Shown: positions 30,055-53,726 of the stretch, in pieces | Layout: every line of letters begins with the position of its first letter | How positions within the stretch are numbered: the stretch's first letter is position 1 | Sequence record: OZ035806.1 | Reading direction: 5' to 3' (one strand) | Source: Felixounavirus NRG857CP1 | Length of the DNA: 64,000 bases | The notes under the pieces: generated by a model | Told to the model about the DNA's origin: nothing | What the model saw: the letters and a program-made list of their open reading frames with translations, nothing else | Database searches by the model: none | Position numbers and translations under genes: made by a program

Positions 30055-30105
30055 AAGTCCTCCTATACAAGATATTGTATAAGGTACTCTTCCCTGAGCA
30101 CCTTG

Positions 30106-30657
30106 TCAACTTAGTTTTGCAAACTCTCCGTGGAGTTTAATAGCAGCTTCACAGTAAGCTTTATGGGCTTCTTCTGGTGTGTCAAACATACCAAGATGAT
30201 AGTTTTTACCTTGTAAACGTATCATTGCTCGAAACCTTTTACTTATCTTCTGTACACCTTTTGGCAACCCAGATGGGGACTCTCTTGACCGATTGCAAGA
30301 GTTTTGTGAAGCTGTACAAACCCTTAAATTCAAGTACCTATTGTCCCAACCGTCCCCATTCTTATGGTCAACCTGTAAGGTTTTATCAGGTAGATATCCA
30401 TCCATATACAAGATAACTAAACGATTTGCTTGGTAACCCCTTCCATCAATCAGCAACTGAACTGACTTGTGTCCATCAGTATTTGTTCTGTAGTTTCCAG
30501 CCCTCTTACCTCCAAATCTAGAGTTAAAGTTTGCATTACCTTCTCTAAACTTCCAAGTAAAGACCCCTGTTTCGGGGTCGTAGTCCAATAGCTCCTTAAG
30601 ACGAATTTCTGTAATCATTTCAACACCATCAATGCACTTCCAACCAGCTCTTACCAA
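30106..30657 (-). CDS. HNH homing endonuclease with AP2-like DNA-binding domain
   Basis: HNH motif QVDHKNGDGWDNRYLNLRV...QN; C-terminal AP2-like GVQKISKRFRAMIRLQGKNYHLGMFDTPEEA; paralogue of 40197-40721; alternative start at 30618 would remove the overlap with the polymerase. Confidence 0.7.
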   Translation of the reverse strand: MVRAGWKCIDGVEMITEIRLKELLDYDPETGVFTWKFREGNANFNSRFGGKRAGNYRTNTDGHKSVQLLIDGRGYQANRLVILYMDGYLPDKTLQVDHKNGDGWDNRYLNLRVCTASQNSCNRSRESPSGLPKGVQKISKRFRAMIRLQGKNYHLGMFDTPEEAHKAYCEAAIKLHGEFAKLS

Positions 30658-33328
30658 CCTTACCTGTGCCAGTTACAAGCGTCTCACTCTTCAAACCTAA
30701 ATTCTTAGATGCCTGACCATACATCCAGTCAGTTATGGCTTTAACTTCTTGAGTCATACTTTCTGGGCACTCCCAACTGTTTTCATCGTGGTATGCCAGC
30801 AAAAGCCTAGCACCAATTGCTGGTTTTCGTCCATTTAATTTTGTCAACCCTTCTTCACATGCTCTTCTACAAGCAAGGTTAATCGCCTCATTTTGAATCT
30901 GAGCCTCTGAACCCATGAGCAAATAATTCAATAACTTATGTGGAGATTTACACCACAACCAAGCTCCAGCAACCTTTACAAAACCCCCTTTAGAGATTGC
31001 AGCAGTCTTACCAAACACCTCTTCAAGTGCCTTTTTAGTTGCTTTGTAGTCAGCTTCCAAGTCATCTAGCAGCTTCTTAATTTTAGGCAAACGAATAAAG
31101 TAAGTCTGTTTAGTCAGTGCTCCTTCCTGAGTAGTTGCAGCTTTAATCGTCTTAGCAAACTTCTCATCACCTGCACCGAACAGCAGTGCATAGATACCAT
31201 TCTTAGCTTTCTTACGACCTTTGCTAATCTCATGAAGAAGATTCTCATCCTGAGTAGCTCGACAAGTCAAGATATCCTGCTCATCATTCAAGCTAAAGTA
31301 AATACTGTTCAGTGTATGTGCATCAGTCCCTGAATAGACAACGTACAGGTCATTCTCAGAGTCATAGCGAAGGTACTTATCAATTTCTGGGTTGAGATAC
31401 TCATCAAAATGTTTGCAGTAATAGCGTCCATCTTCTTGACGAATGAACTCAATCTCTTCTTTACCTTGCGTTACCGCTTTGGTGAAGTCTTTGTCACCCA
31501 TAAAGTTACAAAGAAGAACTAGCTGGGCTGAGTTCATGTCTACAGAGACAACGTTAGTCCCTTCCTCACAAATCCACACTGCCCTCATTGGTTCCCCATA
31601 GACAGCAGCACCAGACGGTACGTTTACAATACCATATTGTGTCATACGTCCAGTTGAAGTACCAAACACCATTGCACCAGCACTAAGGCGACCATCAGGA
31701 CGAATCTGGTTCAACCAACCTTTTTCATCATCCTTTGAGTTCTCAATAGTTCTGCGTCTGTGCATCAAAGTGTAGTATTTCGCAATCTTCTGTCCAAGCT
31801 CACCTTCAATCGTATCATAAGATGATTCAGTAAGTTTTGGTGAAGTACGGATTAAGCAAGGCTCAAGCAAATCTGTGTACTTCTTCACAGACCAGTTATG
31901 CTCAATATACTGTACACCTTCGTGCTCAACATAGCTCAAACCACACCGCTCAACCATTTCCTGCCACTTAGGATGTTTTGTAATCATCTTTTTATTGTCT
32001 TTGAAACGACAAACTTTGACAGGGCGACCATCTGAGTCTTTCTTGTAGTTCCAGTCATCTGGAATCCAACCAACTGATTTCAAGTAGTCTTTAACAACTG
32101 CTACCTGAGTCATACGAGAAACTTCAAACTCAATTGGTGTATACGGTGCATCAATCAAACCTGTGTAGCGACTTGACTCAAGTTCAAAGTGGTTAACAAC
32201 GTGACTGTTATAGTACTTCACAGTTTTGACTGTTTTTACTGGCTTCCAGTCTTTGCATTTCTTACCAATCTTTGCATTCAACTCATTGCAAATTTCACGA
32301 GCATCCTTCATTGCTACAAAACCCTCCTTGTACTCTTCACCAGTTACAGAGTTGGTTGGTGTATAGCAATTCCTTTTTTCAATGTTAAAAATCTTTGTAG
32401 TTGGCTTACCAAATGGTTTGATTTCATAAGTCTGCATCTCACCATTACGTACCTGCTGACGATACTTTGTCTTAGGGTACTTGGTAATTCTTTTCAGTCC
32501 ATCTGCATGACCAAATGCTTCAACATACTCATTCCAAGCTTTTGCAAACTCTTCTCCAGTGACTTTACCTTTGGTCTTAATAGTTGGAGGTAGATGTGGT
32601 TCAACCTCTGAAGCAAGCTCATTAGTCAACTTGTCAAGTTCCTTTACATGGAACTCCATAAGCTCCTTATCAGCTTTCCAACCATTGATAGCTTGTTGAC
32701 TCATCCAGAAAGATGTTTCTTTAGCTCGCATGTAAGTTTCATAAGTGTCTATACCACACTTCTTAAGCTTGAGATACTCGTTATCAAGTGCCCGTTTAGT
32801 TTTGGCGTTAATACGGATATCTTCTACAACACGAGTGAAGATTTCTGCATTCCACACACCCCAATGTTCAATCTCTGGTTTACGAACACCAACACGAGCA
32901 CCCCATGCAGCCAAACCATGAGCACCTTTATAGCCCTTTGGAGTTGGTCTATCCATCCACTGAACACGAGACTGGATAAGAGAATCCTGAAAGAAATTAC
33001 TCCACGGTTTACACTTTGGATTATCAAAGTTCCATAAATCAGGTGCAATGTGATTGAAAACCCACCAGTCATAACCGAGACCATTGTGGATGCAAAGACG
33101 TTTTGCCTTTAACGCAAACTCAATACCTTCACGTAAGCCACCCTTGATGTACTTAGTGTACTTGTGACCGAGGATAGGCTCATCTGTAAAGACCCATACA
33201 GGTGGCTCTTCATCGTCAGATTTATAGTCTGCGAAAGCCATTACGTGCACTTTAGTGAACTCAAGGAGTAAACCATCAGTTTCTGTATCACCAACTAAAT
33301 GTAAGTTTTTAAAATCTACGTTTTCCAT
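30629..33328 (-). CDS. DNA polymerase, family A (Pol I-like), with 3'-5' exonuclease domain
   Basis: Exo I-like DTETDGL near N-terminus; motif A-like VVSVDMNSAQLVLL; motif B-like RKKAKNGIYALLFGAG; motif C-like YHDE; start set at ATG 33328 after AGAGGGAG RBS (ORF open to 33358). Confidence 0.85.
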   Translation of the reverse strand: MENVDFKNLHLVGDTETDGLLLEFTKVHVMAFADYKSDDEEPPVWVFTDEPILGHKYTKYIKGGLREGIEFALKAKRLCIHNGLGYDWWVFNHIAPDLWNFDNPKCKPWSNFFQDSLIQSRVQWMDRPTPKGYKGAHGLAAWGARVGVRKPEIEHWGVWNAEIFTRVVEDIRINAKTKRALDNEYLKLKKCGIDTYETYMRAKETSFWMSQQAINGWKADKELMEFHVKELDKLTNELASEVEPHLPPTIKTKGKVTGEEFAKAWNEYVEAFGHADGLKRITKYPKTKYRQQVRNGEMQTYEIKPFGKPTTKIFNIEKRNCYTPTNSVTGEEYKEGFVAMKDAREICNELNAKIGKKCKDWKPVKTVKTVKYYNSHVVNHFELESSRYTGLIDAPYTPIEFEVSRMTQVAVVKDYLKSVGWIPDDWNYKKDSDGRPVKVCRFKDNKKMITKHPKWQEMVERCGLSYVEHEGVQYIEHNWSVKKYTDLLEPCLIRTSPKLTESSYDTIEGELGQKIAKYYTLMHRRRTIENSKDDEKGWLNQIRPDGRLSAGAMVFGTSTGRMTQYGIVNVPSGAAVYGEPMRAVWICEEGTNVVSVDMNSAQLVLLCNFMGDKDFTKAVTQGKEEIEFIRQEDGRYYCKHFDEYLNPEIDKYLRYDSENDLYVVYSGTDAHTLNSIYFSLNDEQDILTCRATQDENLLHEISKGRKKAKNGIYALLFGAGDEKFAKTIKAATTQEGALTKQTYFIRLPKIKKLLDDLEADYKATKKALEEVFGKTAAISKGGFVKVAGAWLWCKSPHKLLNYLLMGSEAQIQNEAINLACRRACEEGLTKLNGRKPAIGARLLLAYHDENSWECPESMTQEVKAITDWMYGQASKNLGLKSETLVTGTGKVGKSWLEVH

Positions 33329-33523
33329 TTTTACTCCCTCTAAAATCATTAACCTCATACATTACTGCAAAAAATTATAAAAAGCAAGTTGACAATGCAC
33401 TTGACAAGGTGTTAATCTTTGCGAAGTGGGTTTTTACTTAAAAGGTTACTTAACAGTTTAACTATACAGATACTTTAAAACTCTTAAAAGATTATTTAAT
33501 AGCTTTTAAAAAGCTTTAAAGTA

Positions 33524-39196: not shown

Positions 39197-40243
39197 ATGG
39201 AGAAGTACACATTAACAAAACTTCCCGATTCAGTTACACATGTTTTTATTGACTCTGACAGTATTGCCTATAAAGGTGCTTGTGTAGTTGAGAAAGCAAA
39301 ATATAAATATGTCAATAAACTCACAGCAGAAGAATCTGAACCATTTGATAATGCGAAAGATGCTGCAAGATGGTTAGCAGACCAGAGAATCCTTGTGGAA
39401 GAACTTGGCCTGACATTTGATGAAGATGAATGGGAAAGACAGACTTGGAAAGAAGCTAAGAGTGAAAAAGAAGCTATCATGGCTACTCAACAGGTTCTTC
39501 AGGAATGGCTTAAGGTTGTTGGTAAAGAGAGAACTTGGGTAGGTTACTTAACAGAGAAAGGTGTGCATAAACATAAAGACATTAAAGGTCTTGAGCACCA
39601 ATATCAAGGTAACCGTAAAGATGCTGTCACACCAACACACTTAGTTGCTTGTCGTGAATATCTTCTGTCAAGACCAGAGTTCAAACTCTTAAGGGGAGGC
39701 TTCGAAGCCGATTCAATCGTAATTGCTAAAGCTGAAAAGATGGGTAAGAAAGCTGCTCTTATGAGTATTGACAAAGACCTTCGACAAGCTGAAGGGACTT
39801 ATTGTATTGATATGACTTATGAAAAATCACCACTAATTTTTATCGCTGATAATAATGTTGGTAATATCTGGGATTGCCCTATCAAATCAAAACCAAAAGC
39901 TGCAAAAACAGTTGGTGTAGGTTTTAAATTCTTGTGTTATCAGGCTGTTGCTGGAGATAATGCAGACAACTACTTCGGCCTAAAAGGTGCTGGTAAAGTA
40001 GCTGTGATGAATGCTTTAGAGGGTAAAGAGACCTACAAAGAGTGTCTTGACGCTATCTATGAACTTTATGCTAAAAAAGACTCTTATACCTATGTGTCAT
40101 GGGATGGACAGACCGTTACAAAGACGCCGTTAGAGTTAATGGAACAGCATTTCTTCCTAGCTTATCAAGAGCGAAATAAATCAGATATTTTTTCATTTGA
40201 AAAGTATGGTTGGACTCCAAATGTTGACTCAGCAGATACTTAA
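39197..40243 (+). CDS. 5'-3' exonuclease / flap endonuclease (FEN-like)
   Basis: N-terminal VFIDSDSIAYKGA (cf. IDG-S-A-R of 5' nucleases), YQGNRKD, helix-hairpin-helix-like FGLKGAGKVAVMNAL; complements a polymerase lacking a 5' nuclease domain. Confidence 0.55.
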   Translation: MEKYTLTKLPDSVTHVFIDSDSIAYKGACVVEKAKYKYVNKLTAEESEPFDNAKDAARWLADQRILVEELGLTFDEDEWERQTWKEAKSEKEAIMATQQVLQEWLKVVGKERTWVGYLTEKGVHKHKDIKGLEHQYQGNRKDAVTPTHLVACREYLLSRPEFKLLRGGFEADSIVIAKAEKMGKKAALMSIDKDLRQAEGTYCIDMTYEKSPLIFIADNNVGNIWDCPIKSKPKAAKTVGVGFKFLCYQAVAGDNADNYFGLKGAGKVAVMNALEGKETYKECLDAIYELYAKKDSYTYVSWDGQTVTKTPLELMEQHFFLAYQERNKSDIFSFEKYGWTPNVDSADT

Positions 40244-40721
40244 AGAATATCTACACTATGACCCCGAAACAGGGGTCTTTACGTGGATAAAGAAATCAGC
40301 TAAAAGAACAGTTATAGGTTCCATTGCAGGTACACCACATAAGCGAGGTTATATTAGGATAAAAATTAAAAGAAAACCCTATATGGCTCATGATTTAGCA
40401 ATCCTGTACACAGACGGTTTCCTACCTAACAGAGTAGACCATCGAAATGGTATTACTAATGATAATCGGAGATTAAATCTAAGGGTTTGCACACAAGCTG
40501 AAAACTCTTGGAATAGAAGAACACACTCCAACAACACATCTGGAGTTAAGGGTGTATCTTTCTATAAGGCTAACCAAAAATGGAAGGCCAGAGTTATGAC
40601 ACACGGAGTATCTCACTTTCTGGGGTATTTTGACAGTATTGAAGATGCCAAAGATGCAGTCACAAAGAAAAGAGAAGAACTACATAAAGAGTTTTCAAAT
40701 CACGGAGAAGCTTATGAATGA
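40197..40721 (+). CDS. HNH homing endonuclease with AP2-like domain
   Basis: VDHRNGITNDNRRLNLRVCTQAEN HNH core; C-terminal GVKGVSFYKANQKWKARVMTHGVSHFLGYFDSIEDA; N-terminal YDPETGVFTW shared with 30106-30657. Confidence 0.7.
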   Translation: MKSMVGLQMLTQQILKEYLHYDPETGVFTWIKKSAKRTVIGSIAGTPHKRGYIRIKIKRKPYMAHDLAILYTDGFLPNRVDHRNGITNDNRRLNLRVCTQAENSWNRRTHSNNTSGVKGVSFYKANQKWKARVMTHGVSHFLGYFDSIEDAKDAVTKKREELHKEFSNHGEAYE

Positions 40722-41215
40722 AGATTAAAGGATTTGGCAATTGCCCTACCTACGGTCATTGGGTATCTTTATGTGGGGAAGTTGACCCCACTAAACATTT
40801 TGGCTTTGTCTATTTAGTGCACTGTAAGAAGACTGGACAATATTATATCGGAAAGAAACAGTTTAACAGTGTGACCAAAAGAAAAGTTGCTGGGAAGACT
40901 CGGAAGAAGATAGTCACTAAGGAAAGTGATTGGATGACTTATGAGACTTCTTCTGAGTATATTAAAAAAGATATTGAGAGTTTTGGAAAAGAATTTTTTG
41001 ACTTTTACATTATTCAGACCTACTACACAAAAGGTGGCCTAGTCTATGGTGAAGCAAACCTTCAACATAAATTCGATGTAATGACAAAAAGGATTGACTC
41101 TAAGCTCAGACTCTTCTACAATGCCAATATTGCAGCAATTAAGTTTATCACTAAAGAAACTTATGAAGATGCTGAAAAAAGAATCCATAAGGTAATGAAA
41201 GCAAATTGTGCTTGA
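40718..41215 (+). CDS. GIY-YIG-like endonuclease (putative)
   Basis: N-terminal FGFVYLVHCKKTGQYYIGKK resembles the GIY...YIG motif; basic; immediately follows the HNH gene. Confidence 0.4.
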   Translation: MKIKGFGNCPTYGHWVSLCGEVDPTKHFGFVYLVHCKKTGQYYIGKKQFNSVTKRKVAGKTRKKIVTKESDWMTYETSSEYIKKDIESFGKEFFDFYIIQTYYTKGGLVYGEANLQHKFDVMTKRIDSKLRLFYNANIAAIKFITKETYEDAEKRIHKVMKANCA

Positions 41216-41221
41216 TAACTA

Positions 41222-41485
41222 TTGAGAGAGAATAAAATGTTTAACAAAAGTAAAGCTGTGAGTCATGTAGCAAAAGTTGACAGCAAGATTGAAGAACTTG
41301 AGCGCATCCTTGCAAATGCTAGAGAGTCAATAATTAAAGAAGTTGAAGCTGTTGAGTCTCAAATGCAGCACCTAATGCTTAAACGTCAAGAGCTACGTGA
41401 ACATCTAGAATATATTGAAACACGAGAGCTAAAGGTTAACAAATATTTTAAGGAGTCCGAATGTTTAACTCAAGAGAATCAGTAA
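41222..41485 (+). CDS. hypothetical coiled-coil protein
   Basis: 87 aa ORF; likely start at ATG 41237. Confidence 0.3.
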   Translation: MRENKMFNKSKAVSHVAKVDSKIEELERILANARESIIKEVEAVESQMQHLMLKRQELREHLEYIETRELKVNKYFKESECLTQENQ

Positions 41486-47001: not shown

Positions 47002-49146
47002 ATGAACAAAGTACAGATTATTAAAAAGAATGGCTCACTTGAAGAACCTGATATCAAAAAAGTTTTAGCAGCAGTCACAAAATCAGCTAACAGAGTTGGT
47101 TATAAAGAGCTTCCACCAGATGTTACTCAAGCTCTTGAGTCAGCATTTATGAGGATTCTGGTAAAGTCCACTAAGCAGAATAATTTGCTAATTTCGGTAA
47201 ATGATATTCACAGTATTGTTGAGGGTGCTTTGGCAGAAGTCAATCACGAGATTTATGAGTCTTACTCAACATATAGAAATTACCGTAAAGAAGTTGCTCA
47301 AAATTGGGATGAACTCTACCAGAAGACTAAAGATACACTCTTCTTAGGTGACCGTGAAAATGCTAACTTTGACAGTAGTTTAATTTCTACAAAAGGTTCA
47401 ATTATTCGTGGTTATCTGACTAAAGAAATCTTTAAACAGTACCATTTAACACCAGAGGAACTGGAAGCCATTGAAAAAGGATTTATCTATATCCATGATT
47501 TAAGAGACCTGATTTTTGGTGGTATCAACTGTTGCCTGTTTGACATTGGTAAAGTCCTGAAAGGTGGCTTTGAAATGTCTGGCATCGAATATTGTGAACC
47601 AAAGTCTGTGCTGTCGGCCTTACAGGTTATTGGTGACGTAGTTCTTTCAGCAACTGCACAACAATTTGGTGGCTTTACTTTAGCAGAGATTGATAAGGTA
47701 CTTGTACCGTATGCTAAGAAGTCTCTACGCTATCATGCTGAGAAAGCAGCATCTTATGGTATTCCTAAAGAACATTACCACAATTATGTCATGGAGCAGC
47801 TACAGATTGAACTGACTCAAGGTTTCCAGTCACTTGAAATGAAACTAAACACTGTACCTTGTAGCCGTGGGGATTTTGCATTCACAACTTTGACATTCGG
47901 GTTACTTGACTCAGATATGTCCAATGAAGATAACCGACTGCAATATATGATTGCAAGTACCCTCCTAGATGTTCGTATGAATGGTCAAGGTAAGAGCAAG
48001 AAACCTGTTGTATTCCCTAAACTGGTTTATATTTATGACCAGAAGAGACATGATGAAAATATCTGTCAAAGTCACCTGTACAGTAAAGCTATTGAGTGTT
48101 GCTCTAAAGCAATGTATCCAGACTTCTTAAGTGTATCTGGTCATGGTGCTGTAGCAGAGGCTTTTGAGCGTTCTGGCAAGGTTATTTCGCCGATGGGTTG
48201 CCGAGCGTTCTTATCTCCGTATCTTAACGAGAATGGGGAAGAGTTCTACGTTGGTCGTGCTAACATTGGTGCTGTATCTTTGAACTTACCAATGATTTAC
48301 CAGTATTCTAAAGAGAATGGTTTAGATTTCTGGAAAGAGCTTGATAAGTACCTAGAGATGATTCGTAGTTTCCACAAGAAACGTTACGAAATGATTGCTA
48401 ATATGCCAGCAAGTTCTAACCCTCTTGCATTTACACAAGGTGGTCTGTACAAAGGAACTAAGAAGCCTACTGACAAGGTTGGTTGGGATATTGTGAAGTC
48501 CTTCACAGCTTCTTTTGGTGTTACTGCGCTTGATGAGCTATCTGTTCTTGCTGAAGGTAAACGACTTCATGAAGTTGGAAGCTGTAGTTTTGCATACGAT
48601 GTTCTGGCATACATCAACATGAAAACTGAAGAGTTTAAAAATGAAGATGGCTTCTTATATGCCGTCTATGGTACTCCAGCAGAATCACTTTGCGGAACTC
48701 AGTTAAAACAGTTCAGAGATATGTTTGGCGTTATCAAAGGTGTTTCTGATAAGGAATACTTTACAAACAGTTTCCATATGAATGTTGCAGCAGACATCTC
48801 ACCATTTAAGAAGCAGGACTTAGAAGAGCCATTCTTCCATATCTGTAGAGGTGGTAGAATCCAGTATGTCAGGGTAGCTAATCCAGAAAACTTAACAGCA
48901 CTTAAAAGTTGTATTACCAGAGGGATGTTGAAAGGTTTCTATCAGGGGCTTAACTTTGACTTAGCAATCTGTGAACATTGTGGTAACAGACCAAAGGCTG
49001 ATGTTGAAGAATGTGAGGTTTGTCATTCACACGATATCTCTGTGATTAACAGGGTGTGCGGGTACTTGTCATTCACAAAAATTAAAGGTCAGTCTCGAAT
49101 GAATGACGCTAAGATGGCAGAAATTAAGGATAGGGTTTCTATGTAG
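47002..49146 (+). CDS. nrdD: anaerobic ribonucleoside-triphosphate reductase, class III
   Basis: 714 aa; C-terminal zinc ribbon CEHCGN...CEVC and glycyl-radical motif RVCGYL. Confidence 0.9.
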   Translation: MNKVQIIKKNGSLEEPDIKKVLAAVTKSANRVGYKELPPDVTQALESAFMRILVKSTKQNNLLISVNDIHSIVEGALAEVNHEIYESYSTYRNYRKEVAQNWDELYQKTKDTLFLGDRENANFDSSLISTKGSIIRGYLTKEIFKQYHLTPEELEAIEKGFIYIHDLRDLIFGGINCCLFDIGKVLKGGFEMSGIEYCEPKSVLSALQVIGDVVLSATAQQFGGFTLAEIDKVLVPYAKKSLRYHAEKAASYGIPKEHYHNYVMEQLQIELTQGFQSLEMKLNTVPCSRGDFAFTTLTFGLLDSDMSNEDNRLQYMIASTLLDVRMNGQGKSKKPVVFPKLVYIYDQKRHDENICQSHLYSKAIECCSKAMYPDFLSVSGHGAVAEAFERSGKVISPMGCRAFLSPYLNENGEEFYVGRANIGAVSLNLPMIYQYSKENGLDFWKELDKYLEMIRSFHKKRYEMIANMPASSNPLAFTQGGLYKGTKKPTDKVGWDIVKSFTASFGVTALDELSVLAEGKRLHEVGSCSFAYDVLAYINMKTEEFKNEDGFLYAVYGTPAESLCGTQLKQFRDMFGVIKGVSDKEYFTNSFHMNVAADISPFKKQDLEEPFFHICRGGRIQYVRVANPENLTALKSCITRGMLKGFYQGLNFDLAICEHCGNRPKADVEECEVCHSHDISVINRVCGYLSFTKIKGQSRMNDAKMAEIKDRVSM

Positions 49147-49153
49147 AATACAA

Positions 49154-49717
49154 ATGAATTACGAACTAATATATAATGCAATTATTAAAAAGGCACATTC
49201 TGAAAGGGGTGTGCCTCTCACATACTACAAATGTCAAGGTAAGGGTTATGAAAGACACCATATCATACCAGTATGTCTAGGTGGCGATAAAATTAGTGGA
49301 GATAACATTGCTTTACTTACACCTAGAGAGCATTATATAGCTCATAAATTACTGGTTAAGATGTATCCAAACAATCATAAGTTATGGTTTGCATGGAGCA
49401 GGTTAGCTCATGATGGCCTAGATAGGAAAATATCATCCAGAGACTATGAAAAGGTAAGGGCTTTAAACTCGAAAGCTCTATCGATTGTGAATAAAGGTAG
49501 GGTTTTCACTGAAGAGCATCGAAGACGATTAGGAGAAGCTCAAATAGGTAATACAAAGTCAAAAGGTTGTAAAAGGTCTATGGAAACAAGGAAGAAGATG
49601 TCAGAAGCCGGAAAAAAGCCAAAGAAAAAGAAAACTTGCCCGCATTGTGGCATGACTGGTGGTGCTGGTAACATGACTCGATATCATTTTGACAATTGTA
49701 AGAAAAAAAAAAAATAA
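49154..49717 (+). CDS. HNH homing endonuclease with NUMOD-like repeats
   Basis: ERHHIIPVCLGGDKISGDNIALLTPREHYIAH HNH core; two NUMOD-like units (FTEEHRRRLGEAQIG, SMETRKKMSEAG); Lys-rich C-terminus; start at ATG 49154 just after nrdD stop. Confidence 0.7.
   Translation: MNYELIYNAIIKKAHSERGVPLTYYKCQGKGYERHHIIPVCLGGDKISGDNIALLTPREHYIAHKLLVKMYPNNHKLWFAWSRLAHDGLDRKISSRDYEKVRALNSKALSIVNKGRVFTEEHRRRLGEAQIGNTKSKGCKRSMETRKKMSEAGKKPKKKKTCPHCGMTGGAGNMTRYHFDNCKKKKK
49703..49716 (+). repeat. homopolymeric A tract at 3' end of HNH gene
   Basis: About 13 consecutive A encoding the terminal lysines. Confidence 0.8.
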
Positions 49718-49789
49718 CCTTATGTAAAACTTGACAAGGTGGTGTGGGTCTTGATAGGCTTACATCACCTTTTTATTTGGAGTTACATT

Positions 49790-50125
49790 ATGGACTTGTG
49801 GCTTTATGTAGCAGTTTGTGGGATTGTATGTCTGATAATCTTATTTATTCTTGGAATAATGCGATTTAGAGACATCATACAGTCAGATTTTTTGCCTGAG
49901 TTTGCCATGATGGTTGGAGTTATTGCACTTTGTGTCTTGGCGGTGTTCTATTCATACAAAACTGTGATATGGATGAAGTCAAACAATTGTGTAAAAACTC
50001 ATCAACATCGTGAGGTTACTTATTTTGTGAGTGTACTTAGTGGGAACACCACTGTACTTGTCCCACAAACTTCTGTAGAGTATCTTTACACATGTGATAA
50101 TGGTAAAACTATATGGTGGAATTAA
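49790..50125 (+). CDS. membrane protein (two predicted TM segments)
   Basis: hydrophobic segments VAVCGIVCLIILFILGI and MMVGVIALCVLAVFY; start at ATG 49790 after GGAG (ORF open to 49739). Confidence 0.35.
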   Translation: MDLWLYVAVCGIVCLIILFILGIMRFRDIIQSDFLPEFAMMVGVIALCVLAVFYSYKTVIWMKSNNCVKTHQHREVTYFVSVLSGNTTVLVPQTSVEYLYTCDNGKTIWWN

Positions 50126-50328
50126 CAATGGCAACACTCTTAAAGGTATTGACACCCACACTACACATAGTAATCTTCTTCTTTGGGGTTAGTGTTATGG
50201 TATGGGGTTTTTCAGACCCACAATGGAGTTTCTCATATCATGGTCAGATGGATTTATGGTCATGCTTCAAACCATTTTTAGGGTTAGTCATAGCATTCAG
50301 TGCATTACCAACTAAGGTGAAATTATGA
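50113..50328 (+). CDS. small membrane protein
   Basis: 71 aa, hydrophobic segments HIVIFFFGVSVMVWGF and FLGLVIAFSAL. Confidence 0.3.
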   Translation: MVELTMATLLKVLTPTLHIVIFFFGVSVMVWGFSDPQWSFSYHGQMDLWSCFKPFLGLVIAFSALPTKVKL

Positions 50329-50720
50329 TTAAGTTGAGTCAAAAACAGTTAGAGTGGATTAAAGATTATGCCTCAGAGTGTGGCTCTTGTGAAAAGAATC
50401 ACGTAAGATACTCAACATTCCACACGGTCTTCACATTGTATATCGGCGACAATGTTCTAAGTGATTCTGTAGAAGATGGTGTAGCATTGCCTAATGAATT
50501 GCTTGACAAATTAGCTGTAGTCACTGGAACTTGGTCTGAAGAAGATGGTCACGAACTATCTGATGATGTTGTCTTCTACAGTCTTGAAAACATCATGAAT
50601 CCAGAGTACATTATGCTAATGACTTGCGCACAAGATTGTGTACCATTACAAAACTTCATTAAAGAGCACTGTGAAGAATTTATTACTAAACAGGTTCCTT
50701 GTCAGGTGGTGTTTGAATGA
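50325..50720 (+). CDS. hypothetical protein
   Basis: 131 aa acidic ORF. Confidence 0.35.
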   Translation: MIKLSQKQLEWIKDYASECGSCEKNHVRYSTFHTVFTLYIGDNVLSDSVEDGVALPNELLDKLAVVTGTWSEEDGHELSDDVVFYSLENIMNPEYIMLMTCAQDCVPLQNFIKEHCEEFITKQVPCQVVFE

Positions 50721-50779: not shown

Positions 50780-51265
50780 ATGAATTACATGGAGATTAGG
50801 CCATTTGACACAGCTAATGGTGAAGGGGTTCGTGTAAGCCTCTTCGTAGCTGGTTGTAAGCATCACTGCGAAGGCTGCTTTAACAGGGAGTCTTGGAAGT
50901 TTAATGCTGGTAAAGAGTTTACTTATGCAAACCTCTACGGTATCATTAAGTTAATGGATGATGAGGCCATCAGTGGGTTGTCAATACTCGGTGGAGAGCC
51001 TCTGGATGATAGAAATATTCAAGAGGTTACCAACATATGCAAGCGTATTAAAACTGTTTATCCAGAAAAGTCTATATGGCTTTGGACAGGTTTTCAGTTA
51101 CATGAAAAAATTCACCTTGATGTGATGAAATATGTTGACGTGGTGATTGATGGTAAGTATGATTCATCTAAACCAACAGTTAAACCGTATCGTGGTTCAG
51201 ATAACCAAAACCTCTGGAGAAAAGAGTACGGATGGCAAGGTGATTGTCAGTGGAGAGCAGAGTGA
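50780..51265 (+). CDS. nrdG: anaerobic RNR activating protein (radical SAM)
   Basis: CxxxCxxC radical-SAM cluster motif CKHHCEGCFN; 161 aa. Confidence 0.8.
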   Translation: MNYMEIRPFDTANGEGVRVSLFVAGCKHHCEGCFNRESWKFNAGKEFTYANLYGIIKLMDDEAISGLSILGGEPLDDRNIQEVTNICKRIKTVYPEKSIWLWTGFQLHEKIHLDVMKYVDVVIDGKYDSSKPTVKPYRGSDNQNLWRKEYGWQGDCQWRAE

Positions 51266-51345
51266 TTATTCTGGCAAATGGACTAAGGTATAACTCCAAT
51301 TGGTATCACTGAAGAAGAACTTCATAAGTTCTGTATTAAACTTTA

Positions 51346-51627
51346 ATGAGAGAGGCTAAAATGGGAATTTTAGGTAATATGAAAGCTGGCTTCTTGAAGG
51401 CACTGGCAAAAGCAGCAGCAATCATTTCTATGACTGGAAAGCAGGTTGGTGTAGATGCTTCAGCAGTTGCACAAGTTCTTACAAGCCAAATTGAACAGCA
51501 ACCTTACATCTATGTAGGCCGTGGCAAAGGTGGTAAGAAACAAGCCCACCGTCCGTCTGGTGCAGCAGCTATTAAACGAGCAGCCAAGAAAGCTCGTAAC
51601 CGTAAACGTAATAAGAAGGCTAAATAA
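51346..51627 (+). CDS. small protein with highly basic C-terminus
   Basis: C-terminus KKQAHRPSGAAAIKRAAKKARNRKRNKKAK. Confidence 0.35.
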   Translation: MREAKMGILGNMKAGFLKALAKAAAIISMTGKQVGVDASAVAQVLTSQIEQQPYIYVGRGKGGKKQAHRPSGAAAIKRAAKKARNRKRNKKAK

Positions 51628-51629
51628 TC

Positions 51630-51950
51630 ATGAGCAAAGTTTATAACACTCGCAAATTACAGATTTTCGTACTGTGCCAGTTTATGGCTAAAGAATACAA
51701 CTTCTACTATTGCGGCACAGGTTTTATTAGTGATGATGATGGCTCATACCTTCCATTCAAAGAAGCTGTGAAGCTCTTTAATGAAGAGGAAAGCTCTAAG
51801 AAAGATATTGAAAAGGTGAAACTGACCTACAGCAAGAAAGATAAGAAGATTATCTGCCTAGATAACTTTGTAAAAGTTACTGGAAAAGCAAAAGAGCTTA
51901 TGGATGAGAGTGAGATTCCATTCACAAGCCTCTTGAAAGTAGCTCAGTAA
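51630..51950 (+). CDS. hypothetical protein
   Basis: 106 aa ORF followed by terminator. Confidence 0.35.
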   Translation: MSKVYNTRKLQIFVLCQFMAKEYNFYYCGTGFISDDDGSYLPFKEAVKLFNEEESSKKDIEKVKLTYSKKDKKIICLDNFVKVTGKAKELMDESEIPFTSLLKVAQ

Positions 51951-52001: not shown

Positions 52002-52517
52002 ATGTATCTGTCAAACCTGAAACGTTCGGTTGCAATGTCAGTTCTAAGACTCAGCTTTGATGAGCGTCAAGAATTTATAGACTCCCACAAATATGACCCT
52101 TCAAATTCTAATCACATGGTTCTTTGGAATCGTGATAACTTCCGTGAAAGAGCACTTGTCCGTTATTACCCACACTACACAATAGATAACCTGTATGAAT
52201 GGTGTGTTGTGAAGAACACCATTGCAACACTGAACAATCTTTGCAGGTATACGGGTAAGCAAACATTTACACTAGGCCACCACAAACCTGTTACAAAGGG
52301 TGGTGAGCATCACTGTGCAAACTGGTTTATCCAGACTAAACTTGATAACCAGAAGCAAGGAGATAACCTTCTAAGCACACCTAAGATGACCTATGAAGAG
52401 CAAGAGAAATATATCAAAAACAATATGCCAGATGTGCTTGACAACAACTATACAGATTTGGCAATATCTCTCCTGTTGAAGTTCGAGACAGTTTATAGGG
52501 CAACTTACAATGGCTAA
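52002..52517 (+). CDS. HNH-motif protein (putative small nuclease)
   Basis: LGHHKPVTKGGEHHCANWFIQTKLDNQKQG resembles an HNH core (HH...N...N). Confidence 0.35.
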   Translation: MYLSNLKRSVAMSVLRLSFDERQEFIDSHKYDPSNSNHMVLWNRDNFRERALVRYYPHYTIDNLYEWCVVKNTIATLNNLCRYTGKQTFTLGHHKPVTKGGEHHCANWFIQTKLDNQKQGDNLLSTPKMTYEEQEKYIKNNMPDVLDNNYTDLAISLLLKFETVYRATYNG

Positions 52518-52788
52518 AGAAAAGTGGGAGATTTTACCATTAGTCAGTGAAGGTGGTAATGGTTGTGAGATGTACATGATACGTGGTCATGTCCCAGAGC
52601 CAATTGCACTTGAGATGGTAAACAACTTTACAGATGGTTCTTACAAAGACTTAGGCGAACCAACTGTCAAGCAACAATGGGTTAAACCTGTACCAGACAG
52701 CACAGGTAACTGTAGTGTACTTTATCACGTTGTAGACCCTGCAAAATGCAAATCTGCAATGGCAGTAACAAACGTAACTTTTGATTGA
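52510..52788 (+). CDS. hypothetical protein
   Basis: 92 aa ORF. Confidence 0.3.
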   Translation: MAKEKWEILPLVSEGGNGCEMYMIRGHVPEPIALEMVNNFTDGSYKDLGEPTVKQQWVKPVPDSTGNCSVLYHVVDPAKCKSAMAVTNVTFD

Positions 52789-52799
52789 GAGAGAAAACT

Positions 52800-53681
52800 A
52801 TGAAAACATCTATCCGTGTTACAGTTCATTCACCAACTAAAGGGACTCATGAAGAAGAGTTTAACATCATCCAATTTCCTTCTGGTGAGATTGGTGGACA
52901 CTTTTCGCCAGAGTTTGTTGATTTCACTGCTTATGCAGCATCATCCATCAACAATGTGATTATGATTGTAAAAGGTTATGATAAGGACACATTGTTTGCT
53001 GTGGCACTTGCTAAAGAAGCAATTGATGATTTAATTCCTCATGATTATGCTTTAAAGACTGTCATCTTTTACTACTTACCAAATGCACGATATGACCGTC
53101 ACATGTTTAAAGGCGACGCAGCAGCTTTAAAGGTTTTTGCTAAACAGGTAAATGCAATGGGATTTGGTGCAGTCTGTGCAGTTGACCCTCACAGTTACGT
53201 TCCAGATAACCTGTTTAACTGCTTCCAGAGTATTCCTCAAAAGGAGATTGCAGTCCACTATGCAAATGACCCACTGGTTGATTACTTAGTAGCCCCAGAT
53301 GCAGGTGCTGCTAAGAAGGTTGCAGAGACAGCTAAAGAGGTGGATAAACCATATATCACAATGTCTAAGGTGCGTAACCTTAAGACTGGTGAAATTACTG
53401 GTATGCGAATCCTTGATGATGTTGATTTGACAGATAAAACCGTCATGATTCTGGATGATATCTGTGATGGTGGTCGAACCTTCATAGAAGCAGCTAGACA
53501 TCTTCGTGAAGCAGGTGCAAAACGTGTGGAACTCTATGTAACACATGGTATCTTCTCTAAAGATGTTGAAAACCTTCTTGACAATGGCATTGACCACATC
53601 TACACTACAAACTCTTTAGGGGAAGCTAAAGACCGTGGCTTAACACATTATGGTCAAGTTACTGTAGCAAACCTTGATTAA
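52800..53681 (+). CDS. PRPP synthetase (ribose-phosphate pyrophosphokinase) family protein; candidate ADP-ribose pyrophosphokinase of a phage NAD+ reconstitution pathway
   Basis: Aligns by eye with Prs: YLPNARYDR (cf. YFGYARQDR), LVAPDAGAAKKV, PRPP-loop VMILDDICDGGRTF, THGIFS; start at ATG 52800 (ORF open to 52785). Confidence 0.75.
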   Translation: MKTSIRVTVHSPTKGTHEEEFNIIQFPSGEIGGHFSPEFVDFTAYAASSINNVIMIVKGYDKDTLFAVALAKEAIDDLIPHDYALKTVIFYYLPNARYDRHMFKGDAAALKVFAKQVNAMGFGAVCAVDPHSYVPDNLFNCFQSIPQKEIAVHYANDPLVDYLVAPDAGAAKKVAETAKEVDKPYITMSKVRNLKTGEITGMRILDDVDLTDKTVMILDDICDGGRTFIEAARHLREAGAKRVELYVTHGIFSKDVENLLDNGIDHIYTTNSLGEAKDRGLTHYGQVTVANLD

Positions 53682-53690
53682 AACTTTATA

Positions 53691-53711
53691 GGGGCTTAAA
53701 AGCCCCATTTT
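53691..53711 (+). promoter_or_regulatory. stem-loop between the Prs-like and Nampt-like genes
   Basis: ggggct-taaa-agcccc followed by atttt; weak terminator or RNA processing/attenuation signal. Confidence 0.35.
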
Positions 53712-53726
53712 GAGAGAGATTAAAAG

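Follow-up and report, generated by a model that had tools for sequence, protein, structure and literature searches.

Free-standing homing endonuclease genes beside replication and nucleotide-metabolism genes of a Felix-O1-like phage

Five ORFs in the replication and nucleotide-metabolism region of a Felix-O1-like myovirus had been taken, in an initial annotation, for nuclease genes and for mobile insertions, which raises the question of how many of them are homing endonuclease genes and how many belong to the resident gene set. We asked this of a 64,000-nt stretch of DNA from Felixounavirus NRG857CP1 (OZ035806.1; hereafter the window), which covers that region and has 100% identity to the Felixounavirus NRG857CP1 record OZ035796.1. 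An ORF check of the window found all five where they had been annotated. Together with their neighbors, these are:

30106-30618, minus strand: HEG1, free-standing HNH_3+AP2 homing endonuclease gene, 170 aa (Pfam, PHROG, similarity to I-HmuI)
30629-33358, minus strand: polA, family A DNA polymerase gene, 909 aa, intact and intron-less (Pfam DNA_pol_A, phrog_17, relatives' annotations)
39197-40243, plus strand: 5'-3' exonuclease (FEN-like) gene (phrog_107, relatives' annotations)
40221-40721, plus strand: HEG2, second free-standing HNH_3+AP2 homing endonuclease gene (Pfam, PHROG)
40718-41215, plus strand: Seg-type GIY-YIG nuclease-domain protein, 165 aa (SegE_GIY-YIG, PF19835)
47002-49146, plus strand: nrdD, anaerobic ribonucleotide reductase large subunit, intact and intron-less (relatives' annotations)
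49154-49717, plus strand: free-standing HNH+NUMOD3+zinc-ribbon endonuclease gene, 'MobE-like' only by the annotation of its orthologue in phage Barry (Pfam, PHROG, motif alignment)
50780-51265, plus strand: nrdG, activating enzyme (annotations of relatives)
52002-52517, plus strand: near-core 171-aa protein (phrog_3500) with a degenerate HNH-like strand-strand-helix motif (PHROG, motif, structure model)

The homing endonuclease genes here are real, ordinary and already known for Felix-O1-like phages. Judged from the comparisons below, the three HNH genes behind polA, the exonuclease gene and nrdD are very probably selfish free-standing homing cassettes, with the GIY-YIG gene and ORF 52002-52517 as fixed or nearly fixed residents.

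HEG1 is co-oriented with polA and begins 10 nt past the polA stop codon (30629-30631). The annotated gene at the 3' end of polA stands, with its coordinates corrected from 30106-30657 to 30106-30618, because N-terminal conservation and the position of the earliest in-frame ATG both point to ATG 30618 as the start; the longer ORF is the same frame at its fullest extent, opened by a TTG, and would run 29 nt into polA. Its product matches Pfam HNH_3 (6e-12, 45.4 bits, above the gathering cut-off of 24.8), phrog_99 'HNH endonuclease' (7e-61) and, among PDB sequences, I-HmuI (1U3E, E = 0.0017), and the gene has 100% DNA identity to an annotated 'putative HNH endonuclease' of phage LMP34. The AP2 match of HEG1 (7e-6, 26.6 bits) stays under the 33.3-bit gathering cut-off, as does that of HEG2 (0.005, 17.6 bits). 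The AP2 motif KGV...W.A.I...GK...LG.FdT.EEA..AY is visible in the HNH-AP2 proteins, and their orthologues in Mushroom are annotated 'AP2/ERF domain'. The catalytic motif is intact: D84, H85, N93, N97 and N109, which take in the catalytic His (DH) and the pair of Asn of the HNN variant, do not vary among six allele families.

On the same N-terminal alignment, HEG2 most likely starts at ATG 40221 and not at 40197. The start overlaps the end of the exonuclease gene and the stop codon overlaps the start of the GIY-YIG gene (ATGA). It matches HNH_3 (2e-7, 31.1 bits, above the 24.8-bit cut-off) and phrog_99 (4e-71). The third HNH gene, 49154-49717, starts 7 nt past the nrdD stop codon and matches NUMOD3 (2.5e-6, 27.8 bits, above the cut-off of 20.4) and phrog_655 'homing endonuclease' (2.5e-57), and its HNH motif ERHHIIP..GG..N..LTPREH aligns to the DNase motif of pyocin AP41 and colicin E9 (E = 0.004-0.01).

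The product of 40718-41215 matches SegE_GIY-YIG (PF19835, 3.7e-28, 98.7 bits, cut-off 25), with Y32, Y43, E112 and N135 invariant and R62 nearly so. Searches of Pfam, PHROG and NCBIfam revealed no DNA-binding module past residues 21-138, which leave ~27 residues, and a PDB sequence search gave nothing real. All five domain calls hold, that for ORF 52002-52517 weakly. This ORF has no Pfam match, a remote match to the HNH family phrog_2214 (4e-6) and a similarity to the HNH region of IscB (E = 0.046), and its PDB sequence search returned spurious protein-A repeat matches only. The motif GH(H/Y)xP..GG.HH..NW..DN is invariant in its homologues, and an AlphaFold2 model places a strand-strand-helix at residues 89-122 (pLDDT 70). 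A Foldseek search of the PDB with this model gave no significant match (best E 0.5, with HNH proteins among the insignificant top matches). With no Pfam match, a remote PHROG and an insignificant fold match, the HNH call for this ORF is weak.

Among window ORFs of at least 60 codons we found no further HNH-AP2, GIY-YIG or NUMOD paralogues, and an NCBIfam profile search returned nothing over cut-offs. The small ORFs 51630-51950, 52510-52788, 51346-51627, 50325-50720, 49790-50125 and 41222-41485 belong to PHROGs of unknown function, and endonuclease signal is absent from them. Orthologues of 51630-51950 are widely labelled 'HNH homing endonuclease', and this label needs correcting. An Rfam scan of the window at gathering thresholds detected no intron and no other RNA family, so the window's endonucleases are not intron-borne; HEG1, HEG2 and the nrdD-site gene are each an intergenic ORF of their own, outside any intron or intein.

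Comparison with related phages, the check proposed with the initial annotation, revealed empty sites for all three HNH genes, which are therefore not present in all relatives. At polA, the exact empty site was found in Moogle and at related loci L013-15, L023 and L033. The HEG2 block (40214-40712) is absent, leaving exact empty sites, from JLBYU28 and warpig, and the nrdD-site block (49149-49720), flanked by a ~9-nt repeat TATGTAxAA, is missing in the same exact manner from FelixO1, ekra, JLBYU28 and Moogle. All three insertions are ORF-sized and each follows directly on the stop codon of its neighbor, be it polA, the exonuclease gene or nrdD, with 5-9 nt of junction microhomology at each empty-site locus. 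The alleles are sporadic, full-length in 27 (HEG1), 27 (HEG2) and 51 (nrdD site) of 262-297 matching phage records. Another endonuclease site is empty in the window itself:

53682-53726, plus strand: empty site in the prs/nadV interval (occupied by a third HNH-AP2 gene in FelixO1, Mushroom, Moogle and ekra)

The essential genes beside the three insertions are locally mosaic, and to this extent the annotated hotspots of mosaicism were borne out at polA, the exonuclease gene and nrdD. The final codons of the exonuclease gene extend into the HEG2 insertion, and identity over its last ~400 nt drops to 73-80% against FelixO1, Mushroom and warpig. A local identity dip lies in nrdD beside the insertion; nrdD is also split in Mushroom and JLBYU28, and Rfam assigns the insert in JLBYU28 to the group I introns. 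All three HNH genes are under purifying selection, with dN/dS of ~0.1 for HEG1 (against alleles of 94% identity), 0.12-0.25 for the nrdD-site gene and 0.06 for HEG2 (against Moogle, a rough value because dS is saturated at >1).

The mobile reading did not extend to the other two ORFs. Of the 297 matching phage records, 295 carry a full-length GIY-YIG gene, whose position is kept even in Erwinia Ounavirinae, so that it is essentially present in all relatives without empty sites, and ORF 52002-52517 comes close to this (240 of 273 matching records). Both are under purifying selection (dN/dS 0.04 and 0.11, respectively). That all five genes are nonetheless active mobile homing endonucleases is very unlikely, despite the conserved GIY-YIG catalytic residues, the label 'GIY-YIG homing endonuclease' in relatives and the loss of ORF 52002-52517 together with its neighbor 52510-52788 from JLBYU28 (block 52043-52753) and likewise from GE_vB_7A. 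The GIY-YIG protein lacks a recognizable DNA-binding module, ORF 52002-52517 shows no allele replacement, and a gene that is fixed everywhere has no empty sites left for homing. On its distribution, the GIY-YIG gene is a core Ounavirinae gene without evidence of present movement, and ORF 52002-52517, on the same kind of evidence, is a nearly fixed subfamily gene and not a sporadic endonuclease gene. Both are most plausibly resident nucleases that descend from endonucleases and may have been domesticated. In relatives, the GIY-YIG core gene is mislabelled 'NAD synthetase' or 'homing endonuclease', which needs correcting.

Further features lie in and beside polA and at the nrdD site:

30632-30900, minus strand: hyper-divergent polA 3' tail, including the motif-C codons LLLAYHDEN (identity dip in close relatives)
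31183-31187, minus strand: unoccupied group I intron insertion site in polA motif B (introns in relatives)
30099-30109, minus strand: TTGACAAGGTG box, -35-like, overlapping the HEG1 stop codon
49731-49741, plus strand: second exact TTGACAAGGTG box, directly after the nrdD-site insertion

In close relatives, identity is 62-81% over the final ~270 nt of polA, compared with 93-100% just upstream and 93-98% over the preceding 270 nt. Synonymous changes crowd around YHDE in this tail, and its haplotypes track the allele family of the downstream endonuclease. The site holds competing alleles: across 38 related loci and the window, which are non-independent samples since many IMG/VR loci are the same isolates as GenBank phages, it was empty in 15 and otherwise carried one of five HNH-AP2 families of 39-71% amino acid identity. 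At L012, the endonuclease gene is ~92% identical to HEG1 and the adjoining polA ~85%; because the endonuclease is closer than its flank, this points to transfer between backgrounds. Two other loci (L008 and L017) combine the window's polA tail with a 44%-identical endonuclease, a mismatch that indicates allele replacement.

These patterns suggest that polA is likely both host and target gene of HEG1, with the target and the co-conversion tract located in the tail at 30632-30900. By analogy with the seg and mob genes of T4, the enzyme would nick or cut the endonuclease-free allele of a related phage during mixed infection, within the conserved gene beside the insertion and, for HEG1, most likely close to the motif-C codons, inside the final ~270 nt of polA. 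The break would be resected and then repaired off the endonuclease-carrying genome; repair would copy the endonuclease gene plus the stretch between cut and gene and would thereby generate divergent flanks linked to each allele. We infer cleavage, target position and homing of the three HNH genes from such comparative patterns, and the divergent flanks could instead stem from ordinary recombination hotspots at module borders.

It is also conceivable, if unlikely, that the three HNH genes are no longer mobile and serve the phage as resident nucleases of an accessory kind or as DNA-binding regulators of the AP2 type, in a role such as competition with co-infecting phages, counter-defence or regulation of neighboring genes, with patchiness arising from loss and ordinary recombination. 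The strong purifying selection (dN/dS 0.06-0.25) and the occupation of the polA site in most sampled relatives (24 of 38 loci) would fit such a role, and phage homing endonucleases can act in competition or immune evasion (PMC11620839, PMC13096335). A competitive benefit is, however, compatible with homing and hence no true alternative, and immobility leaves unexplained how five lineages of 39-71% identity came to swap at one site, why the empty sites are ORF-exact and carry microhomology, why the L012 endonuclease is more conserved than its flank and why one polA tail is found with different endonucleases.

A further possibility involves the intron site in polA motif B. At the equivalent of 31183-31187, relatives carry polA introns of 268, 311 or ~800 nt, with Rfam Intron_gpI matches in Mushroom and JLBYU28; the ~800-nt intron of L033 encodes an EndoVII-type HNH ORF (one intron read). 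HEG1 and such an intron might home collaboratively or in trans, a published concept (PMC2988022), if the enzyme cut at 31183-31187 and the ORF-less introns acted as immunity partner. The ORF-less introns of 268 and 311 nt do occur only beside a family 1 or 2 HNH-AP2 gene, in four of four cases (Mushroom, warpig, JLBYU28 and L037), and four of the five genomes with the ~800-nt intron have no downstream endonuclease, the L033 copy having its own endonuclease ORF. However, this sample is small and non-independent, HEG1 accompanies an intron-less polA in the window, ekra, L007 and L012, and identity to endonuclease-free relatives dips only slightly at 31100-31300 (90-98%) and collapses in the last 270 nt. 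With HEG1 found beside intron-less polA and the dip sitting at the tail, collaborative homing with the polA intron was not supported, and we consider it improbable next to homing of HEG1 as a free-standing cassette.

The TTGACAAGGTG box lies 6-7 nt after the polA stop codon in endonuclease-free genomes. It may have a promoter function, as its -35-like sequence would suggest; as a sigma-70 promoter it was rejected, the -10 elements being poor or ambiguous, and it is counted here as a conserved box only.

The initial annotation had further proposed that the two HNH-AP2 genes arose by recent duplication or mobility, on the basis of a common peptide and matching nucleotides. Both similarities are real: the peptide YDPETGVFTW is common to the two proteins, and an exact 16-mer, GACCCCGAAACAGGGG, occurs at 30564-30579 (minus strand) and 40260-40275 (plus strand), with two matches in 0 of 100 shuffles and none expected by chance. 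Recency did not hold up. Amino acid identity is 39% (BLASTP) or 44% (global alignment), dS is saturated at 1.7, and DNA-level similarity is confined to a 33-nt patch. All Ounavirinae HNH-AP2 lineages examined retain this patch, which indicates conservation or constraint and not recency, and on these distances HEG1 and HEG2 are old paralogues. The common 16-mer belongs to an 18-nt GC hairpin in each gene:

30562-30579, minus strand: GC hairpin or palindrome GACCCC-GAAACA-GGGGTC in HEG1 codons 14-19, DPETGV (sequence, lineage comparison)
40260-40277, plus strand: the same GC hairpin GACCCC-GAAACA-GGGGTC in HEG2, 39 nt after the start codon, as in HEG1

The stem codons are invariant in nine of nine Ounavirinae lineages and freely variable in 40 HNH-AP2 lineages of other phages. 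They are codons hardly used elsewhere in this genome of 39% GC (CCC makes up 1.9% of Pro codons in window genes). As an internal control, a GGGG-N7-CCCC hairpin in the GIY-YIG gene (40775-40789) is not conserved, with Felix O1 and Mushroom using GGT and CCA. A family-wide RNA structure was rejected, as the 40 other-phage lineages keep the peptide, vary the codons and show no compensatory pairing. A strong intrinsic terminator is unlikely, the U-tract being set by variable Phe, Leu and Thr codons; HEG2 is, moreover, translationally coupled to the downstream core gene, which needs read-through. We tentatively raise the possibility, to which we give well under even weight, that GACCCC-N6-GGGGTC, which every YDPxxGV-type Ounavirinae HNH-AP2 paralogue carries 39 nt into the gene, is a lineage-specific cis-acting control element. 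It could serve as an operator for autorepression through the AP2 domain of the enzyme itself, which is known for I-TevI, or as an mRNA hairpin that throttles a toxic nuclease. If true, an endonuclease control element would lie inside the coding sequence and would have been kept while the gene diverged to 39% identity.

The closest known counterparts of HEG1 and HEG2 are Felix O1 ORF95 (after polA) and ORF106 (after the exonuclease gene), which share their sites, HNH_3 domain with putative AP2 domain, YDPxxGVF N-terminal motif and C-terminal motifs and whose orthologues are annotated in ~280 Ounavirinae genomes. The window's alleles fall into other allele families than those of Felix O1: HEG1 and ORF95 have 42-43% amino acid identity, and the middle of HEG2 lacks any DNA-level match in ORF106. 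The nrdD-site endonuclease is present in the window and not in Felix O1, whereas the prs/nadV endonuclease ORF128 is present in Felix O1 and not in the window. By sequence, the closest solved structure to HEG1 is I-HmuI of Bacillus phage SPO1 (PDB 1U3E), with the motif hRLv...vDHkdGn...NLR..T..N aligned. Both are linked to a phage DNA polymerase gene. I-HmuI is encoded within an intron, nicks a single strand and binds DNA through NUMOD/helix-turn-helix modules, whereas HEG1 is free-standing and has a putative AP2 domain. The GIY-YIG domain at 40718-41215 matches SegE_GIY-YIG over nearly its whole length, as in T4 Seg proteins (SegE and others), with catalytic positions conserved. Unlike the mobile seg genes, the window gene encodes a 165-aa protein without a recognizable DNA-binding domain, is universal in the subfamily and is under strong purifying selection.

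In T4, free-standing endonucleases cleave at distances of hundreds to thousands of bp from the gene that encodes them, accompanied by co-conversion, and T4-type mob targets lie in the adjacent conserved gene, with flanks co-converted during homing (PMC2988022). In T4-type phages, mobC is situated between nrdG and nrdD and mobE between nrdB and nrdA (PMC2988022). Like the T4-type mob genes and Aeh1 MobE, the nrdD-site gene is a free-standing HNH gene in an intergenic position among ribonucleotide reductase genes; its product has NUMOD3 repeats and a C-terminal zinc ribbon. A 2010 study counted six HNH copies in Felix O1 (PMC3185647), and an HNH-AP2 protein of Felix O1 was noted by Magnani in 2004 (cited in PMC5318435). 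With such genes published since 2004/2010, the HEG1 allele already annotated and behavior that matches the T4 seg/mob paradigm, the loci carry little weight as a discovery.

Their value lies in what they explain about these phages, some of which have been proposed as biocontrol agents (PMC8300805). The three HNH loci explain locally discordant polA, exonuclease and nrdD phylogenies in Felixounavirus, and the ends of polA, the exonuclease gene and nrdD should be masked when these phages are typed or placed in trees. The conserved hairpin offers a modest lead on how the endonucleases are regulated, one that could be tested at low cost, and the polA site is a convenient natural system for endonuclease competition, as five competing lineages and empty alleles meet there and three intron variants occur 555 nt upstream.

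OZ035796.1, a record of Felixounavirus NRG857CP1, was 100% identical to 6-kb and 24.6-kb slices of the window at equal coordinates. These slices matched 262 and 280 phage records, respectively, nearly all from Felix-O1-like phages (Ounavirinae) and mostly at 90–98% identity. The region studied is the replication and nucleotide-metabolism module, with ligase, polA, primase/helicase, a 5'-3' exonuclease gene, nrdA, nrdB, nrdD, nrdG, prs and nadV. All five ORFs that the initial annotation had proposed as mobile endonuclease genes are present in the window:

30106-30657 (-): ORF with Pfam HNH_3 above threshold and an AP2 match below threshold; phrog_99, E = 7e-61
40197-40721 (+): ORF with Pfam HNH_3 above threshold and an AP2 match below threshold; phrog_99, E = 4e-71
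40718-41215 (+): GIY-YIG gene; SegE_GIY-YIG, 3.7e-28
49154-49717 (+): nrdD-site gene; NUMOD3, phrog_655 and a classical HNH motif
52002-52517 (+): ORF 52002; remote PHROG HNH match only

The first two contain HEG1 and HEG2, which follow polA and the exonuclease gene. Based on the sequence and an alignment of allele families, the HEG1 start is placed at ATG 30618, 10 nt past the polA stop, rather than at TTG 30657. Among solved structures, HEG1 comes closest to the HNH homing endonuclease I-HmuI, and the HNH motif of the nrdD-site protein aligns to the DNase motif of colicin E9 and pyocin AP41. ORF 52002 encodes a conserved motif, GH(H/Y)xP..GG..NW..DN, with no Pfam domain found; its model has a predicted strand-strand-helix element and gave no significant match in a fold search.

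Comparing the window to six annotated relatives and 32 IMG/VR loci revealed exact empty sites for HEG1, HEG2 and the nrdD-site gene, which by sequence behave like free-standing homing endonuclease genes. At the polA site, the window carries an extra block (30111-30619) relative to Moogle and several Felixounavirus contigs; it consists of the HEG1 ORF, with a 5-nt repeat (GTTGA) at its ends. Empty genomes have TTGACA(A/G)GGTG within 6–7 nt after the polA stop, and in the window this box overlaps the HEG1 stop codon. At the exonuclease site, JLBYU28 has 8 nt in place of block 40214-40712, which is also missing in warpig; the last codons of HEG2 recreate the TATGAATGA junction and thereby preserve the ATGA overlap of the HEG2 stop with the start of the following gene. 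At the nrdD site, block 49149-49720, flanked by a ~9-nt repeat of the nrdD end, is missing in Felix O1, ekra, JLBYU28 and Moogle. Full-length window alleles occurred in only 27 (HEG1), 27 (HEG2) and 51 (nrdD-site gene) records of the phage collection, and all three genes are under purifying selection (dN/dS 0.06–0.25). The prs/nadV site is empty in the window and holds a third HNH-AP2 gene in Felix O1, Mushroom, Moogle and ekra.

The proposal of five mobile genes is supported for these three, which are sporadic and have empty sites, and is not supported for the GIY-YIG gene and ORF 52002, which are near-universal. The GIY-YIG gene was full-length at a constant position in 295 of 297 matching records, Erwinia Ounavirinae included, with dN/dS of 0.04. 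In its protein (165 residues, no DNA-binding module found) the GIY, YIG, Glu and Asn positions are invariant and the Arg position nearly so, and the gene is translationally coupled (ATGA) to whichever gene precedes it. It is a core gene of the Ounavirinae and encodes a predicted nuclease with a Seg-type domain. Its annotation in Felix O1, Moogle and JLBYU28, and in PHROG 447, reads 'NAD synthetase'. ORF 52002, whose homologues are confined to this Felix-O1-like group, was full-length in 240 of 273 matching records (dN/dS 0.11). Loss of ORF 52002 was seen only within a two-gene deletion: JLBYU28 lacks a 711-bp block (52043-52753; 13-nt overlap at the junction) covering most of ORF 52002 and of ORF 52510-52788, and GE_vB_7A retains just 36 nt of ORF 52002, indicating that this pair is dispensable. 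In ekra, warpig and JLBYU28, orthologues of the nearby 51630-51950 (+) carry the label 'putative HNH homing endonuclease'; the only PHROGs hit by the protein have no assigned function, no NCBIfam model matches it, and the label appears unfounded.

Across 38 loci and the window, the polA site was empty in 15 cases and otherwise carried one of five HNH-AP2 families just 39–71% identical in protein. The last 270 nt of polA form discrete haplotypes that follow the endonuclease family, with A found beside family 1, B beside an empty site, C beside family 2 and D beside family 4. Identity of these tails to the window is 62–81%, compared to 93–98% in close relatives for the 270 nt just before; over the middle 300 PolA residues it is 90–100% in all loci except the three most distant. 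The changes are mostly synonymous and dense around the motif-C codons (LLLAYHDEN). Family 3 occurs on five different tails, two loci (L008 and L017) combine the window's tail with a 44%-identical endonuclease, and a third (L012) has HEG1 at ~92% DNA identity beside a polA gene of ~85%. Around HEG2, identity also dips in the final ~400 nt of the exonuclease gene and the initial ~150 nt of the gene that follows, and a further dip covers the end of nrdD (~100 nt), in keeping with the mosaicism initially proposed at these insertions. All five families (L001-L038) share an almost identical C-terminus of ~24 residues (TPEEAHKAYCEAAIKLHGEFAKLS; window 30106-30211(-)), and many DNA-divergent alleles are identical over their last ~70 nt, a pattern suggestive of recombination breakpoints, or of a shared element, within the gene's 3' end.

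In relatives, polA is interrupted at the motif-B codons (window 31183-31187) by a group I intron of 268, 311 or ~800 nt; the ~800-nt intron of L033 encodes an EndoVII-type HNH ORF. The insertions in polA or nrdD of relatives were noted at these locus coordinates:

L002: 3089-3393
L004: 3103-3386 and 19761-20111
L033: 2251-2790

An insert also splits nrdD in two relatives: that of Mushroom contains an HNH ORF, and that of JLBYU28 is a group I intron by Rfam score. Neither polA nor nrdD carries an intron in the window, and none were reported in Felix O1 (PMC3185647). Collaborative homing of HEG1 with a polA intron might be read from the co-occurrence of ORF-less polA introns with downstream family 1 or 2 (4/4 cases), but HEG1 also sits beside intron-less polA and divergence is concentrated in the tail, not at the intron site, so this explanation is not supported. 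The empty sites, allele competition and flank patterns, from which we infer cleavage, target position and homing, fit the T4 free-standing endonuclease model of a distant cut in an adjacent conserved gene, resection, donor repair and co-conversion of intervening sequence (PMC2988022). Here, the endonuclease would cut at a distance within the conserved gene adjoining its insertion; the break would be resected and repaired from an endonuclease-carrying donor, co-converting the sequence between cut and endonuclease gene.

The initial annotation read DNA shared by HEG1 and HEG2 as recent duplication or mobility. The shared 16-mer is real and not expected by chance, but the proteins are 39–44% identical, dS is saturated and only 33 nt are alike, contradicting a recent origin. 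In this patch, 39 nt past each start codon, lies a perfect hairpin or palindrome (GACCCC-N6-GGGGTC):

30562-30579 (-): hairpin in HEG1, inside the DPETGV codons
40260-40277 (+): hairpin in HEG2, inside the DPETGV codons

All Ounavirinae HNH-AP2 alleles of this type (window; L001-L038, L040-L093) carry it, and it is present in the minimum-free-energy and centroid folds predicted for five alleles. Stem codons GAC, CCC, GGG and GTC are invariant in 9/9 Ounavirinae lineages (<90% amino-acid identity to one another), while synonymous sites of flanking codons and several loop positions vary; CCC makes up 1.9% of Pro codons and GGG 7% of Gly codons in window genes. In 40 HNH-AP2 lineages of other phages, the peptide YDPETGVF is kept, all codons are used and pairing is not maintained. 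Because the stem codons are invariant in Ounavirinae and free elsewhere, the 16-mer signals nucleotide-level constraint, or possibly repeated micro-conversion, within this lineage rather than recency. The hairpin is absent from a third Ounavirinae HNH-AP2 family (YEPETGL), and the comparable GGGG/CCCC element of the adjacent GIY-YIG gene is not kept in relatives. The most plausible candidate roles are an expression-limiting mRNA hairpin or an AP2-domain-bound operator; a strong terminator is unlikely.

Three intergenic GGGGCTT-N3/4-AGCCCC hairpins (20510, 53691 and 58463) look like the phage's usual terminators, that at 53691 lying within the prs/nadV site where relatives carry the HNH-AP2 gene. 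The 11-mer TTGACAAGGTG occurs exactly at 33401-33411(+) and, immediately behind the insertions at the polA and nrdD sites, at 30099-30109(-) and 49731-49741(+); with up to one mismatch, 8 were found versus 2.15 expected. It may be a promoter -35 box, with ambiguous -10 elements. Blocks 49794-50156 (between nrdD and nrdG) and 51300-51507 (after nrdG), which include a small membrane-protein-like ORF and no endonuclease signature, vary in presence among Felix O1, Mushroom, ekra and warpig, and prs drops to 63–69% identity to Felix O1 and ekra at 52800-53100.

Homing endonucleases in Felix-O1-like phages are a real but ordinary finding, already known: six HNH copies were described in Felix O1 in 2010 (PMC3185647), a 2004 mention of its HNH-AP2 protein is cited in PMC5318435, and records of relatives label the flagged genes HNH or GIY-YIG homing endonucleases. 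The association with nrd genes mirrors that of T4 mobC and mobE (PMC2988022), and the BASEL study avoided homing-endonuclease-infested regions in building phage phylogenies (PMC8594841). What is added here is the exact empty sites, the competition of five allele families for the polA site, linkage of the polA tail to endonuclease family, a conserved hairpin, and the reclassification of the GIY-YIG gene and ORF 52002 as core or near-core.
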